A DNA stretch of 57,421 bases, the filler included, from Dirinaria sp. TL-2023a (lineage: Eukaryota): the NCBI GenBank assembly GCA_051941275.1. It is 6 parts of 6 records of this genome, joined end to end, with 100 filler letters (N's around TTAATTAATTAA, not from the genome) between each part and the next. Parts side by side here need not be neighbours in the genome. Positions count along the whole stretch, not along the records: positions 28,780 to 38,266 come from JAVEBF010001047.1; 5 more parts are not named here. One strand, 5' to 3'. Both the position numbers and the translations under genes were made by a program. This document shows, in pieces, positions 19,696-34,465 of the stretch. The notes under the pieces were generated by a model. The model worked only from the letters and a program-made list of their open reading frames with translations, had not been told where the DNA came from and ran no database searches. Each line of letters opens with the position of its first letter. The first letter of the stretch is position 1.

Positions 19696-21734
19696 TTACT
19701 CACTGAACGACTTCCCCAGGTTCTCATCCCCCTGCCAGAATTTGGGCATAGGAGGTAGTTTCTGGCGCAGTACTTTGACCCTGAAAGTGTGCATCGCTGC
19801 CTTGATGTGGTACGAAGCATGCTTCCAAGTCGGCACGGAGAAGACCTGATCCAGCTCTTCCAACGTCAGAGCCTTGGTCTCGGGGACGAAGAGCAAAACG
19901 CCGACCCAGCCGATGAGGCACCACACCGCGTACCAGGCGAAGGCGCCTTGGTCTTTGAAGCTTGTGCGCAGCATAGGCCAGGTAAAGGAGAGGATGAAAT
20001 TGAAGGTCCACGTGGTGGCGGTAGCGAACGACATGCCGACTTCACGAATGTGGAGGGGGAACGCCTCCGCCGAGTACGTAAAGGGGACAGGGCCCGAGCC
20101 GGGCGAATAGAAGACTTCGAAGAGGTACATTCCCGTGGTGACCATGGCGACCCGCTTGGGTTTTAACTCGTCTATCCAGAACGAGAATCCGGTCCAGAAT
20201 AGGAAAATGGCCAAGAATGGGTATGTGAAGAGCAGCAGGTTGCGGCGGCCGAACGAGTCAATGGTCAAGAAAGCTGGGATGGCAAAAACCCAATTGAGAA
20301 TACCGGTACCCATAGAAGCGAGAAGCGCGCTCGACTCGCTAAACCCTGAGTTGAGAAAGATGGTTGTCGAGTAATACCTGGAATGAATTTAGCCTACTGC
20401 CCGTCCAGCGAGGACAGTAGATCGAATCACTTACGCAATCACATTTACACCGCAGAATTGCTGCATGAACATGACGATCCAGCTAGCCAAAGCAGCGCGT
20501 CGGTTGCGGCCCACAGTGAACATTTCCTTGACCAGATTTCTGCCGCGCGAGACTTTGCGCTCAATTTCAACATTGACGTAGCAGTAATAGAGATCTCGAG
20601 CAGCTTGGAGATCGCTACCCCGGATCCTCTGGAAAGCGTGAAACGCTTTATCGACCCGATTCTTCTTGATCAGCCATCGAGGGGATTCTGGGCAGAGATA
20701 CACTTGCGCACAGACGACCAGGGGCAAAACCACGGTCGAGCCGAGCATCAGACGCCAGTTCAGATCATGGCCAACGTTCAAAAATGCGACTCCCATAATG
20801 TTGCCGAGCTAAATTTGCAATGGGTTCAAGGATTAGCCACTTCTTTCCATTCTGATCAACTAGCAACCTGATAAGCAACTGAAACGAAATATCTGAAACG
20901 TACCATGATCCCGAAAGCGGTCCACATCTGCCACATCATAACCAAAGCTCCTCGGATGAGAGGCGGAGAACATTCGGCAGCGTAAACGGGGGTGGTGGTC
21001 GATTTTGAGCCAATCCCCAAGCCAAGGAAGAACCTAGCAACGAACAAATTGACCCATGAGTTGGCGACACCTTCCCAGATCGAGGCGAGAGCTGCGATCA
21101 AACAGGAGATGAAAATGGTGCCTCGCCGCCCAAAAAGGCTGTTCAGAGGTGCGGTGAGCCAGCAGCCCAGAACTGCACAGGCCAGGTAAGGAGCTCCGAC
21201 GACAAGGCCGGTAATGTAATTTGCCATGTTGACGTCGAAGCGATCGGATGTGTTGGTTTTTGAGTCCGTCACTACATTGAATCGTTTGAGGTAGAAAGTT
21301 TGAGCGCCGTTGTTGACTGTCTCGTCCATGCCCTGGACGGCGGCGCAGAGCGAACACATGATAACGAGGTAGTAAAGCTGCTTGGGATGGCGCCATTTGT
21401 GGGTGTGCTCCTCCTCCAGCACGCGCTTCTCGTCGTCACTCAGAACATCCAAGTGCTGGTATCCAGATGGATCCTGAGCTACAAGAGCGCCCTTGCGGAA
21501 CGTCTCTTGATACTCGATGAGGTTGTTCTCTGTGCAGAATTTGTCGACATCGGCGAAGAGCTGTTCCCGTGGAATGCCACCGAGGGGATTTTCGAACATG
21601 GCATTGAGCTTGTCTCGCGGAACAGCATCGGGGGCAGCGCCATATCCCCCAACACTGGCCCTCTTCTCACTGTGTACAGCCTCATTTCCGATAGTGGACG
21701 ACCCCGGAGAGCTTTCATTCTTCTGGTCAGCCAT
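19696..21734 (-). CDS. MFS sugar porter (polyol/myo-inositol transporter-like)
   Basis: AVQGMDET, FGRRGTI, PVYAAECSPPLIRG, PESPRW, MQQFCGVNVI, IDSFGRR, YSAEAFPL, PETKALTLEELD. Introns ~20808-20902 and ~20378-20434. Confidence 0.93.
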
Positions 21735-29701: not shown

Positions 29702-30460
29702 CTTTCTCTCCGATGTTTGCGGTTGAAGGGAACTCGGGGGATAAAGTTAAGGGGAAGAATTGAGAGTTGGTTAAGAGAAGAGGGGTGGAGGAGTCGGCCT
29801 GCCATGACGGGCAATTTATGTCGACGGGGGGGCAACTGTATGAAGGCGCGCAAGGAAGACTCGTGCACTTGCTAGGTGAAGGTTCTTGTAACTCGATACT
29901 GGGAATCGGATTGGAGAGTGAATACATGAAGGGAAGTCAGCCGGGATTGGAATTGGAATTGGAATGTTGAAGGGATTTGCAGACTCGAGGCCAAGTGCTT
30001 ACCCTTCAAGAAGCCGTTTCCATCTGTAGATTGTGTACGAGGTACGACCATGGCATGAGGGTGACTGAATGCCACGCACTTATCGGGACCGATGGCCTTC
30101 GCATGAGGATGTTGTGCCTGGAACGGCGCTAGTGAGACAGCGATGCGATGATGATGATGATGGGGTCAGGACCACATCTTGGGGGCAATGAATAATACCA
30201 TTGCCTCTTAGATAAGTTATGTAGAAAAATCATAAATACAATGCTTCATCTGGGAAAATCTCGCCAGATTCCGAAGCTGGTATCGCGCGCGCTCTCTCTC
30301 TCTCCAAAAAAAAAAAAAAAAAAAAAAAAAAATTGGGAAACGCCTCTTCACTCAAAAGAGACCCATGTCTAATGTAATCTGGTGCATCCACGTCAAAATA
30401 AAGGGGGAAAGGGTTCGTCTCCACAAGAGGCTATACATGATCTTCCATAAGCTAGATAGC

Positions 30461-32366
30461 TCAATCCTCGTCCTGGCCTAATCGCTTATAATTGCCCGTC
30501 TGCCCATTACCGCTTTTGCCTTCGCTCCTACCCCGGTTGGCGAGTCGAGAGATCCAACCACCGATGCCTTCGGAACGAGACTCCTCCGGAGGCTTTCCGT
30601 CCTGTGCGTTGGGTGGGTTGATATCCAGACCAGGGATAGCGTTGTCTGCGCCTAGGTTTCCGAATTGACCTCTTCGAATGTCGAGCGATGGCACGGGCGA
30701 TCGAGCGCTCATGAGTGAGTCAACCTCGGCTTGCTGGGCAGGCGTGGGCATTGCGGTGGTAGCATCCCCGAAAATCTGGTCCATGTCCTCCAAACGCACG
30801 TTTGCCGTTTCAGGATATATGAAGTACACTATGCGGTGGTTAGCATCTTGGCATACGGATGGCTTTGGAGTGGTATGAGCTTACCAAGAACGAAGCTCAC
30901 GGCGCAGAAAAAGGCATGCACAAGGTACAACCGCCACTTGATCCATTCCTGCAGAATGGGTGTCATTTCGCCGACGATCCAATTGCAGGCCCAGTTAGCC
31001 GCCGTACTCAAACTTGCGCCTTTGGCACGAATGCTAAGCGGTAGGATTTCCGGCGGATATAACCAAGGTATCGGCCCCCAGGAAGCTCCAAATGAGGCAT
31101 TGTAGATCATGACGAATATGACAGTCAGTAAAGGCGTGTAGTGAACATCGATGAAGATAAAATATGATATGGCCGAAAGCGATAGAATCATAGCGACAGC
31201 ACCGGAGAGGAGGATCATACGTCGACCCCATCGATCCACCAGGTACCATGGAGGTATGGTCGAAAGAAGATAGGTGATACCGTTGATACCCGTCATCAGG
31301 ATCGCCTCTCGTCCAACCCAGCCAGCGGATTCGAACACGAGCGGCGCATAATACGATATGACGTTGATGCCATTGAGTTGAGCCAACGCTTGTGCAGACA
31401 TAGCGATGAAGAGTCGTTTGTAGTATTTTCTGAACATTTCGTAATATGTCCTTTCACCTTCTTGTCGTTGTAAGAGCACGTTCATCTTGATCTCTCGGTA
31501 TTCTTGTCTCGCCTTGTCATTGTGGATGTCACCGCCTCCATAAAGATTGGCAATGACTACTATGCCTTCCTCGTCATGATCATTATCGAGCAGCCATCTA
31601 GGTAAAGGATCAGCACTCCAGGAAAGAACGATCTTAAAGGGGATATGTACCTTGGTGACTCGCAAATGATCAGGCTTCCCAGACCCAGGAGCAGACCCAT
31701 GAAACATTGCAGCAGGAGTGGCACTCGCCAGGCGTAATCATTCGGGATGTAGCTAGAAAAGTAGTCTACCCAGACACTGGCAGCGTACCCCGAGATGTTG
31801 CCTGTAAATTCGATACATGCGAGCTTGCCCCGGTTATGAGGAGGTGAGATCTCTGATTGGTAAACGGGTACGATTGTCGATAGTGCACCGACGCCAAGAC
31901 CAGCAATGATACGGCCGAGGATCATCATGGGCATGCCGTTCGCAAATGTCTGGAGCCCACCTCCAACGAAAAAGACAATGGAGCCGTATAGGATCGTCTT
32001 TCTCCGCCCTATCACGTCACCTATTCGTCCCACGCTGAGTGATGCGACTAGCGCTCCAATTTCGAGGATAGCAACCATAGTACCGATTTCGGCTCTTGTA
32101 GGCTGGTTGAAGTAGTCGATAAAGAACGAGCCCCTAATCCATAAACCCCGTCAGCAACTGCTCAGGCAGAGGGAATGGATGCACAATACGTTATTATGCC
32201 CGACATTACACCTTGGTCATATCCAAAGAGAAACACCCCCAGCGAGACAAACACGCTGGTAAAATATCTGCTGTGCATTAGCCATTGCCATTGGAATTGA
32301 TGTTTCCCATGTGCCATACAGCAAAGGCTTGCCCGTGAGCCCATGGCTCCCTACCCGGCCCGTCAT
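30461..32366 (-). CDS. MFS sugar porter (monosaccharide transporter); coordinates run from the first in-frame AUG, possible non-AUG extension to ~32918
   Basis: FLFGYDQGVMSG, IGRRK, PVYQSEISPP, ESPRWL, QLNGINVISYY, VDRWGRR, SWGPIPWLYPPE, YPETAN. Introns ~32268-32319, ~32134-32189, ~31598-31651, ~30829-30884. Confidence 0.92.
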
Positions 32367-34465
32367 GATGGTAGCAAGAATTTTTTCTGTCCGGCCAATC
32401 GTCCTCGGCGGAGGCTCCGGTATTTCAATAGCCTCCTTATCGACTCCAGGATTGGTGGTCTTTCGGTGTAGATGATCTTGTGGAGCGTAACGAACCTCCT
32501 TGTGCCGCCGACTCCCCTGTCTTGAACCGGACCGGCGACGAGTCTCTGCCTCGTACGAGCGGCGTAGCCTGATCTGTAGCGGGTCCTCCTCGTTGGCAAG
32601 CTGCTCGGCGAGATCTCCCGTGTCGCTCCAGAGGGAAAAGTCGGAGCCCGCAGATTCCGAGGATGGCCGGCCCTCTCGTTTCTCGTCAGAGGAATGCAGC
32701 AGCGACGCCGAATGGTCGTCGTCAGAGCGAGAAGGGGTGGTGAGATTGCGGAGGGGAATGGCAGCGGCGGTATGCTTTGAGGAAGGAATTGTGCCGGTGG
32801 TGAGTGGGCTGACCTGTGGCAGCCCTTGTGCCAGTTCCCTGGGACGGCCAAATATGTGTACTAGTTTAAGAGGGTGAAAATACACGTGGAATGTCGGCTG
32901 CAGGATCGTGTGAGGAGGTCACGGATTGTGGGGACAGGGTCTTGAGGGTCTCGCATCGGAGCAGAAGCTACTAAACAACAACTGGACAACTAGTCCTCTT
33001 AGAATTCTTGAAGTGGGAAAAAAAACTAGTGGACTATTCTGAGGGGGAGGCTGATGCAGGGAGAGTCTTTCGGACCGTGAGCAGAGAGAGTCGCGCTGGG
33101 CGAATAGAGAACAGCAGAGCCACACTAATACTGCAGCATTTAGCCACCTGCAGACTGACTCTGCTTTTTTCTCTTTGTACCGTGCTGAGAGTTTCGGTAC
33201 CTAGTTGCTGACTAACACGCAAGCAGCCATGGATCAATAGATGGAGTATTAGTATTTCCAGGGTCCAAAGGGTCCACACACCATGTCGTCCAAGACTTCG
33301 GTAGAGTCAGCAAGAATTCTCAACTACTGTACTGCTTAAGATTCGTCCGAGGTTTGCCCTGCCCTCTTAATTACTCTTCTGCTTTCGGCATAAGTATCTA
33401 CTGTACGCTTCGCACACAGGCAACGTGTTCTGTAGCATGAGACAACAAAGCCATGCACCGCCCTACAGCCCTTTCTACCAGCTGAATGATCACCACGTGG
33501 TCTATATATGAACACCTGGTAAAGACAAAAGCCCTCTGCAGAGAAGAGCCTTGGGCCAGCACGCCTACAATCCCCACGACCGACCCCACGCTTCCAAAAG
33601 TACGGAAGGCCGGCACCGCAACCCGTCATTAAAGTAGGTAATCAACTAATAACAATTGAAAGCATCATACAAGCATTTGAAGATCGCGTAGGTCGCCCTC
33701 AACCCCAAGCCAAGCCCTAGATCCCGCAAAACCGCCTCTGTCCCTCAAAAAAAGCAATATTTCCCCTCCCCTCCCATTACCTTATTTCAGGTATTCCTCG
33801 GAGGTGTCCTTGAAAAAACGTCAGGTGACTTCTGACCCGGACCCCGGCTACAGCGTTCCGCGTGCGAACACCACATGCATAGCTAATCCACCAATCCACC
33901 AGTCCACCGAGCTGGTCCAAAGACCGATCGATACCTTACCTCAGTATCCCCGGCTGGCTCCGGTTACAATCGAATAAACTACACATACATTATGTTACCA
34001 TGAGCTCGCCCTTGCAGAAAGGCGCACTCAAATTTTCTTCATTAACCATAATCATGTGTTTTGCAGCACAGTAAAGGCCCATTATCATGTTTGGGCGTGG
34101 CCAGTATCTGTTGTCTAATTCCTTGAGTCTTGTCGATTGCTGCTGGGAGAATGCTTGCGTGACTGTATCTACAGACTTTGACCCGGATCGAAGCCTGCAA
34201 TATCGACCGCATCTGAAGCAATGTGGATGATTCCAATAGAAGGATGATGAGGACTTCAATATTAATACAATCGAATAATAATAAGACCAATGCACTTCCT
34301 TCATCACCAGCCATGTGGTGGTGATTCAAACATCAAGACTTTTGAGTCCAAACCAACCAATGCCATGCTCACCGTGTGCCTTCGACCTTTTCCTTCCCCG
34401 GCCTCTTGCAACACCACAACGGCGCCTACCTGCCTCTAATCGCCACGCGACGTAATAGCTGGCTC

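Follow-up and report, generated by a model that had tools for sequence, protein, structure and literature searches.

Introduction

Conserved N-terminal extensions that start at a non-AUG codon and are combined with leaky scanning to a downstream AUG are an established kind of translational arrangement; to our knowledge, deeply conserved and well-supported examples are few in fungi. In the parts of the reports considered here, the Neurospora crassa cpc-1 mRNA is described as specifying a non-AUG N-terminal extension that includes a conserved AUU (NCC7) (Ivanov et al. 2017, PMC5487733), and the ArgRS and LeuRS of Cryptococcus as having mitochondrial isoforms started at AUU or ACG (Wallace et al. 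2020, PMC7049704), a paper that also mentions N. crassa rco-3/sor-4, a sugar transporter regulated by an upstream open reading frame (uORF). Within the same limits, non-AUG extensions are described in human (PMC3105428), a GC-rich upstream enhancer of near-cognate starts in mammals (PMC13754004), and structure-assisted non-AUG initiation (START), in which an RNA hairpin lies beside a near-cognate start (PMC11165317). Here we describe a sugar-porter gene on the minus strand of a 57,421-base stretch of DNA from Dirinaria sp. TL-2023a (the whole stretch is referred to as the window), in which a conserved AUG (32364–32366) is preceded by a 141-codon extension (32367–32789) that is free of ATG in all frames. 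The reading favoured here, with a probability of about 0.65, is that AUU 32789 would start a long isoform and AUG 32366, reached by leaky scanning, a short one.

Results

Conservation of the N-terminal extension

Upstream of ATG 32366 its frame has no stop for 552 nt, until a TGA (32921–32919, minus strand) closes it, as had been reported in an earlier, sequence-only reading of this DNA; the corresponding minus-strand stop-to-stop open reading frame (ORF; 32217–32918, 233 aa) contains ATG 32366, and the peptides quoted in that reading are present in its translation. A search with 157 residues translated from 32837–32367, targeting longer proteins, gave 88 matches at E ≤ 0.01 among 941 candidates. 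These homologues are sugar porters of 560–830 residues from Lecanoro-, Eurotio-, Dothideo- and Leotiomycetes, and homology of the extension goes down to E 1e-50 beyond the genus, reaching other classes. Similarity at the protein level spans from a motif ..(T/I)IPSS.. to a conserved ..IM(T/S)G.., the Met of which corresponds to ATG 32366, while the public protein models are unrelated to each other in their N-termini ahead of IPSS.

Orthologous DNA was obtained by scanning metagenome contigs with the extension alignment, giving at least 64 confirmed loci among the 595 pattern matches listed, from which sets of distinct sequences were drawn (34–37 leaders, 40 extensions and 30 core exons). The stretch from ATT (32789–32787; see below) to ATG is in frame and uninterrupted in 40/40 distinct sequences (124–156 codons), with conserved acidic and proline-rich motifs. 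Ratios of nonsynonymous to synonymous substitution (dN/dS, Nei-Gojobori) were 0.091–0.324 for 12 informative pairs of 14, one pair without any synonymous difference and one saturated pair being left out; synonymous sites are saturated between the major groups of orthologues. No Pfam family matched the extension, a search of the ESM Atlas gave no usable match, and AlphaFold2 run on a 28-sequence alignment gave a mean predicted local distance difference test (pLDDT) score of 42.4, with the extension below 50, so that the fold was not usable.

Because it has 88 homologues, dN/dS of 0.09–0.32 and an unbroken frame in 40/40 sequences, the extension is, as judged from these comparisons, real coding sequence under purifying selection, and by the same evidence the feature is a property of the transporter family across at least four ascomycete classes. 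An untranslated 5′ leader, with ATG 32366 as the sole start, could look similar in some respects, in that a long leader selected against upstream AUGs would likewise be ATG-free, and all three frames are fairly open in the T-poor stretch of the extension. However, the dN/dS values, the homology to E 1e-50 in other classes and the lack of any stop or change of frame in the 40 sequences leave this explanation extremely unlikely.

ATG depletion specific to the extension

On the minus strand of the window ATG 32956 is followed by no ATG in any frame until 32366, in agreement with the sequence-only reading; no other ATG-free run of the window, on plus or minus strand, is as long as this gap of 590 nt (runners-up: 425 nt on the plus strand and 403 nt on the minus strand). 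The roughly nine ATGs said to be expected in it hold for uniform composition only, as the local composition (T 18.5%, C 34%) gives 6.0 from a mononucleotide model and 4.6 from a first-order Markov model; for the part from ATT to ATG, 2.8% of codon shuffles are equally ATG-poor. From the window alone the depletion is thus suggestive and of modest statistical weight, and it becomes compelling only with the orthologues.

Among the matches listed, the frame of the conserved block is free of ATG from its upstream stop to the block in 64/64 loci, and from stop to ATT it contains 0 ATGs in 924 codons of 34 distinct leaders. The downstream Met is present in 61/62 loci that reach this point and is shifted by one residue in the 62nd (L053). 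In the 40 distinct extensions (17,106 nt) 14 ATGs were found in any frame, vs expectations of 111 (codon shuffles) and 137 (first-order model), and 28 of these sequences have no ATG at all. Three of the 14 are in frame, each adjoining the conserved Met (L057–L059). The remaining 11 are out of frame, vs 109.1 expected (ratio 0.10; zero in 31/40 sequences), whereas a 160-codon core exon from the same loci, used as a control, contains 114 out-of-frame ATGs vs 116.9 expected (ratio 0.98; zero in 0/30). ATG depletion is therefore, on these counts, a family trait specific to the extension rather than to the transporter core. Coding conservation and depletion of AUG in orthologues, for which the sequence-only reading had asked, are thus both seen (dN/dS 0.09–0.32, ratio 0.10), with the frame kept from ATT onward.

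Since the extension has been purged of ATGs in all frames and the core has not, these data point to a near-cognate start combined with leaky scanning to the conserved AUG, which has A at −3 in 39/40 sequences: an AUG-free interval separates the two proposed starts and the downstream AUG is conserved in good context. A different account of the purge is that only a long protein started at AUU matters and that AUG 32366 encodes an internal Met, absence of AUG serving to keep ribosomes that have failed to start at the weak AUU from wasteful initiation in other frames. The Met does lie within a conserved peptide (..IM[TS]G..) and may be kept for protein reasons, but ribosomes passing a weak AUU, which would be most of them, always meet the in-frame AUG 32366 first, its A at −3 is nearly invariant, and it stands at the natural N-terminus of a sugar porter, 18 residues ahead of the first membrane helix. 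A single product is accordingly considered unlikely.

AUU as candidate start and loss of frame upstream

The proposed start of the long isoform is an ATT (32787–32789, minus strand) with A at −3, C at −4 and C at +4, in frame and 141 codons before ATG 32366. It is invariant in 36/36 distinct leaders and corresponds to the I of IPSS, where conservation of the protein begins. The A at −3 and the C at −4 are also each found in 36/36, although the codon that supplies them may encode I, T, N or K. For Ile at other positions of the extension ATT (76), ATC (163) and ATA (57) are found, and all three codons are in use at two other conserved Ile columns; such free synonymous usage implies that the T at the third position of this ATT is kept by more than the coding of Ile.

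Upstream of ATT the frame is lost. In-frame stops are found 3 codons ahead of it in L035 and L023–25, and 8 codons ahead, within the loop of a conserved hairpin (see below), in L026. The spacer that separates hairpin from ATT has a 1-nt indel when L035 is compared to L032, and the hairpin loop shows a 1-nt difference (an extra base behind 32817 in the latter) between the window and the related strain, 95–99% identical, from which RNA contigs are available. Conservation at the protein level upstream of ATT was absent in the comparison of orthologues, and in L035 no near-cognate codon other than ATT separates the stop from the conserved peptide. In-frame stops, indels and spacers in all three frames mean that coding cannot begin upstream of ATT, and the openness of the window at 32790–32918 is therefore incidental. 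What remains is the pattern of a non-AUG extension, conservation beginning on its 5′ side with a near-cognate codon that is itself conserved and has a good context.

The in-frame near-cognate codons named in the sequence-only reading (ACG/ATC/CTG, GTG 32885 and CTG 32834) exist in the window, but its proposal of a start near the 5′ end of the open frame did not survive comparison with relatives, as the leader frame there is unconserved (1-nt indel, in-frame stops), and the extension of 184 codons that it had counted is shortened to 141 by the conserved ATT. Its broader idea of a long near-cognate isoform and a short AUG isoform fits in kind, given the 64 AUG-less loci and the purge of ATG, while the start site and the length have had to be changed.

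A start further upstream, at GTG 32885, CTG 32834 or CTG 32822, alone or besides AUU, nevertheless deserves consideration. All three share the main frame in the window, and as near-cognates CTG and GTG usually surpass AUU in strength. In 29/36 leaders, including that of the window, at least one CTG, GTG or ACG stands in frame after the last stop and before ATT. None of these is conserved in position, however; the loop insertion puts the three codons out of frame in the related strain, other relatives have stops between such codons and ATT, and protein-level conservation ends at ATT. We regard initiation at these codons as improbable, to about the same degree as a single AUU-started product.

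RNA contigs, splicing and public gene models

Four RNA-seq runs contain the locus, all from one lichen-metagenome sample of one study, and yield contigs 95–99% identical to the window. These contigs splice all four downstream introns, yet are unbroken across 32320–32931 (X1) and 32320–32942 (X2); X3 ends at 32841, and X4, which has the gene in pieces only, is uninformative for the leader. They reach 32942, and so do not indicate a start of transcription downstream of ~32450, which would speak against translation of the extension. A second source is L035 (2228 nt), which is colinear with a full-length orthologue (residues 11–690) and lacks the four introns of its genomic relatives L032–34, and from this lack we infer that it is a spliced mRNA contig of a distant relative. 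Its leader aligns with that of genomic L032 over ~330 nt upstream of ATT with no gap >8 nt. No intron in the leader was seen in the RNA contigs of the related strain or in L035, and no upstream AUG spliced into the frame, an event raised in the sequence-only reading, was found in either.

These data bear on the most conventional explanation, an ordinary AUG start in which ATG 32956 begins a first exon joined to the main frame by removal of a 47-nt (32885–32839) or a 62-nt (32922–32861, as in P0089) intron. Removal of either restores the frame in the window, as the sequence-only reading had stated for the 47-nt segment, gene predictors model the family in this way (P0089, P0007, P0021 and P0033), and minor isoforms may escape contigs. 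Against this, contigs that splice four other introns cross the region unspliced, and the L035 leader is colinear with genomic DNA. The candidate leader introns of the window (47, 62 and 84 nt) have GTG donors (GTGTAT and GTGACC for the first two) and no CTRAY branch site, unlike the four confirmed introns, which have GTA donors and CTRAY branch sites and are 52–56 nt long. The extra loop base puts both the 47- and the 62-nt intron out of frame in the RNA strain, yet the protein of this strain is conserved (P0090), and in orthologues the ORF that begins at the upstream ATG varies in length (7–34 codons) and in frame relative to ATT (f0, f1 or f2). A spliced AUG exon is consequently judged very unlikely, and the use of ATG 32956 in this way, also put forward in the sequence-only reading, is replaced by a conserved uORF.

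The cluster at 90% identity that contains the best hit includes NCBI KAL8823120.1 (from a metagenome-assembled genome of Dirinaria sp. TL-2023a), which equals the exons of the window (100% identity, residues 378–616) and is modelled as MRDPQDPVPTI + LHIFGRP.., i.e. from ATG 32956 with a predicted 62-nt intron (32922–32861). P0090, in the same cluster, was called on a 2372-nt RNA contig, starts at TTG 32851 in the frame of ATG 32956 and enters the main frame through the extra loop base. It follows from P0090 that the stop at 32863 is present in the RNA strain and that the two strains, although near-identical, do not share the same frame upstream of 32818.

Two candidates were rejected. A T>A change removing the TAG in the related strain was discarded, as P0090 starts after that stop. 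The frame of ATG 32956 had resembled Teloschistales N-termini and was considered as an ancestral coding frame, but the resemblance is nucleotide-level conservation of the leader read through by gene models, and variation of the frame between loci also rules this out.

Several public models of the family are odd, being either fused to a neighbouring mitochondrial-carrier gene (941–1110 aa) or named ‘Ribulose bisphosphate carboxylase large chain’ (P0047, P0072, P0075, P0083 and P0084; P0008, P0043, P0053, P0060 and P0078). These are probably annotation artefacts, possibly triggered by the missing AUG.

The leader uORF

ATG 32956 opens a uORF of 31 codons and a TAG (32861–32956, minus strand; TAG at 32863–32861), a length already given by the sequence-only reading, with a peptide beginning MRDP and C at −3, a weak context. 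An upstream ATG is found 120–215 nt ahead of ATT in 28/37 distinct leaders, 13 of which, including that of the window, encode a peptide beginning with M(R/C/H)D and without exception have a pyrimidine at −3. The uORFs of 7–34 codons end 66–174 nt ahead of ATT; within 300 nt of ATT 75/77 uORFs stop at least 66 nt upstream, the two that overrun ATT being those of L028 and L029. By this comparative evidence, what begins at ATG 32956 is a conserved uORF and not a spliced first exon.

The two exceptional leaders, L028 and L029, have an extra out-of-frame upstream ATG at the foot of the hairpin, 37 nt upstream of ATT, which begins a lineage-specific 23-codon ORF overlapping the AUU start and ending 35 nt past it. 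In leaders L001–L004 and in the RNA strain the uORF is in the frame of the extension with only its stop codon between, so that stop-codon readthrough could there give an AUG-started long form; in the window the two frames differ.

The start of the uORF coincides with the first of two copies of a CGTGAYC motif (32947–32953; ATGCGTGAYCC in relatives), and the second follows 20–35 nt downstream (32917–32923, minus strand, in the window), where it contains both the TGA that closes the main frame and the GT used as a donor by the public model. In lineages with uORFs of 7–8 codons (leaders L005, L007, L009 and L012) the TGA stop of the uORF comes from this second copy. A third conserved block, ..CTGATCCATTCCAC.. 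in relatives, lies after the CGTGAYC copies (~32903–32886 in the window).

A conserved hairpin upstream of AUU

A conserved RNA hairpin (32806–32825, minus strand) lies between the uORF and ATT, with a 5′ arm at 32825–32820, an 8-nt loop at 32819–32812 and a 3′ arm at 32811–32806. Its predicted energy in the window is −13.2 kcal/mol (z −3.0), and five examples span −8.3 to −13.5 kcal/mol. The hairpin has 6 bp, and its loop in the leaders compared is of 5–10 nt (21 in one sequence). Alignment of 36 leader segments by MAFFT followed by RNAalifold gave 0 pairs, the 3′ arm being misaligned, and a covariance model built from 9 well-aligned sequences was used instead. At E ≤ 0.02 it gave 39 matches in 42 sources, the hairpin sites of L038, L040 and L053 being visible by eye and missed at this threshold; a looser search (E ≤ 1) gave 47 matches, of which 4 were spurious and weak.

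In 34 distinct rows of the resulting alignment standard pairs fill 99.5% of 195 cells, and compensatory changes are seen in 3/6 pairs (10 cells; besides G-U intermediates, GC to AU twice and UA to AU once). Covariation scored 0.201, compared to 0.107 in shuffles, of which 0/500 reached the observed value; when the 3′ partner is slid by 1–3 columns only 29–51% of cells pair. The G-U pairs argue for an RNA of the sense strand. Rfam 15 covariance models gave 0 matches at E ≤ 1 in 32300–33300.

Between hairpin and ATT is a C-rich, non-coding spacer of 16 nt (32790–32805, minus strand). Its length ranges from 11 to 17 nt in 34 distinct sequences, in all three residues modulo 3, as taken from the model alignment, since lengths based on RNAfold are confounded by extra outer pairs.

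Gene body and other features of the window

The sugar-porter body (30461–32366, minus strand) has five exons and ends at a stop codon at 30463–30461; its introns (32319–32268, 32188–32133, 31650–31598 and 30884–30829) are removed in the RNA contigs. The downstream exons match Pfam Sugar_tr (PF00083, major facilitator superfamily, MFS) at E 1.2e-36 and 5.3e-50, with scores of 127 and 171 bits vs a curated cut-off of 22.3, which places the product among sugar porters. Intron 1 ends in a CAGCAG tandem acceptor (32268–32273). In the RNA contigs it is spliced to 32268, the distal AG; splicing to the proximal AG would insert one codon.

At 30300–30345 are ~27 consecutive T and, after them, (GA)n and (GC)n, ~120 nt past the stop codon and outside the RNA contigs, whose 3′ end is at 30355 (30200–30344 was skipped as a repeat in RNA mapping). 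A second, distant sugar-porter paralogue is found at 19738–21377 (minus strand; 24–29% identity in two tblastn segments). The window contains 440 N, none of them inside the gene studied here.

Discussion

Proposed mechanism

In the order of translation, the leader would present a uORF in weak context (ATG 32956), a moderately stable hairpin (32825–32806), 16 nt of spacer and AUU 32789 in strong context. A fraction of scanning or re-scanning 40S subunits would start at this AUU, producing a long form of ~703 residues with a 141-residue cytosolic N-terminal extension, while the remaining subunits, the majority, would pass 423 nt cleared of AUG and start at AUG 32366, giving a short form of ~562 residues. 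The uORF, by re-initiation, and the hairpin may tune the ratio of the two. By analogy with work on transporters of yeast and other fungi, the extension is probably a regulatory cytosolic tail.

Several points weigh against initiation at AUU followed by leaky scanning. Both the start of ribosomes at this codon and the existence of two isoforms are read from comparison of sequences, and the 40 sequences are related to each other, so that the counts of ATG and ATT are not independent trials. AUU is a weak near-cognate codon, and additional lineage-specific near-cognate starts are possible in the 29/36 leaders that have other such codons in frame. The RNA contigs come from a related strain and a single sample rather than from the organism of the window; contigs drop minor isoforms and do not mark the start of transcription, and these end 14 nt short of ATG 32956, so that presence of the uORF in mRNA is deduced from L035, the mRNA status of which rests in turn on its missing introns. 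Of the named NCBI orthologues (from Letharia, Lasallia, Lepraria, Uncinocarpus, Rhynchosporium and others), known from protein models only, some are modelled with long ATG-started N-termini, and in P0005, an ORF called in the prokaryote style, an ‘M’ of unknown codon stands ~100 codons upstream. The covariation counts are from an alignment fitted to the hairpin structure, which favours the hairpin.

A more specific proposal, which we put forward tentatively and consider doubtful, is that a single translational switch, conserved across Pezizomycotina, is made up of the uORF, the covarying hairpin and the invariant AUU. Once on the exit side of the 40S subunit, the hairpin would fold again as AUU enters the P site, or it would bind a factor, and in either case would raise or gate recognition of the weak AUU; re-initiation after the uORF would make the ratio of long to short form respond to nutrient or eIF2 status. 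If true, such a switch would be an upstream-structure-assisted selection of a non-AUG start, distinct from the effect of a downstream hairpin, and would control the regulatory tail of a sugar transporter.

Under initiation at AUU and AUG, as favoured here, the missing upstream AUG accounts for the unrelated and probably artefactual N-termini of the public models, as predictors invent introns or fuse the uORF or neighbouring genes. It also points to a choice between transporter with and without a 141-residue cytosolic tail as a means by which lichen-forming and other ascomycetes regulate the uptake of sugar. With an invariant AUU and context, an AUG purge with an internal control, immediate loss of frame upstream and a covarying hairpin, the signatures are clean enough for the family to serve as a test bed for the selection and tuning of weak start codons.

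Comparison with known systems

Full-text literature searches found no report of a non-AUG extension for a membrane transporter or for this sugar-porter family. Kozak reportedly described an effect of downstream hairpins on start selection. In that effect and in START, in the parts of the latter report considered here, the structures lie downstream of the start and stall the scanning subunit, whereas the 3′ end of the sugar-porter hairpin is 11–17 nt upstream of AUU, so that this mechanism is not applicable as described; no search was aimed at downstream structure, and the conserved hairpin identified here is upstream. It is the sole element of the locus that could prove mechanistically new. 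The C-rich spacer may be comparable to the GC-rich enhancer described upstream of near-cognate starts in mammals.

Like the sugar porter, rco-3/sor-4 of N. crassa, mentioned in PMC7049704, is an MFS sugar transporter/sensor of a fungus with a uORF in its mRNA; a non-AUG extension is not reported in that mention. The Cryptococcus ArgRS, in the parts of that paper considered, is closer in mechanism, with an AUU in strong context (..caccAUU) for the long form and a strong downstream AUG reached by leaky scanning for the short form (PMC7049704), but its extension is a short targeting peptide, while that of the sugar porter is a conserved domain of 124–156 residues with no targeting role evident.

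The likeness to cpc-1 extends to a Pezizomycotina mRNA with a long leader containing uORFs, in-frame near-cognates including AUU, no in-frame stop before the main AUG and at least two isoforms from one mRNA (PMC5487733); the sections of that paper and its supplements considered here do not mention transporter, MFS or sugar. They describe cpc-1 as a transcription factor with several near-cognates that are partly conserved (64–98 of 100 species; PMC5487733). The sugar porter, in contrast, is a membrane transporter with one invariant AUU (36/36), an AUG-purged extension of 141 codons and a covarying hairpin just upstream.

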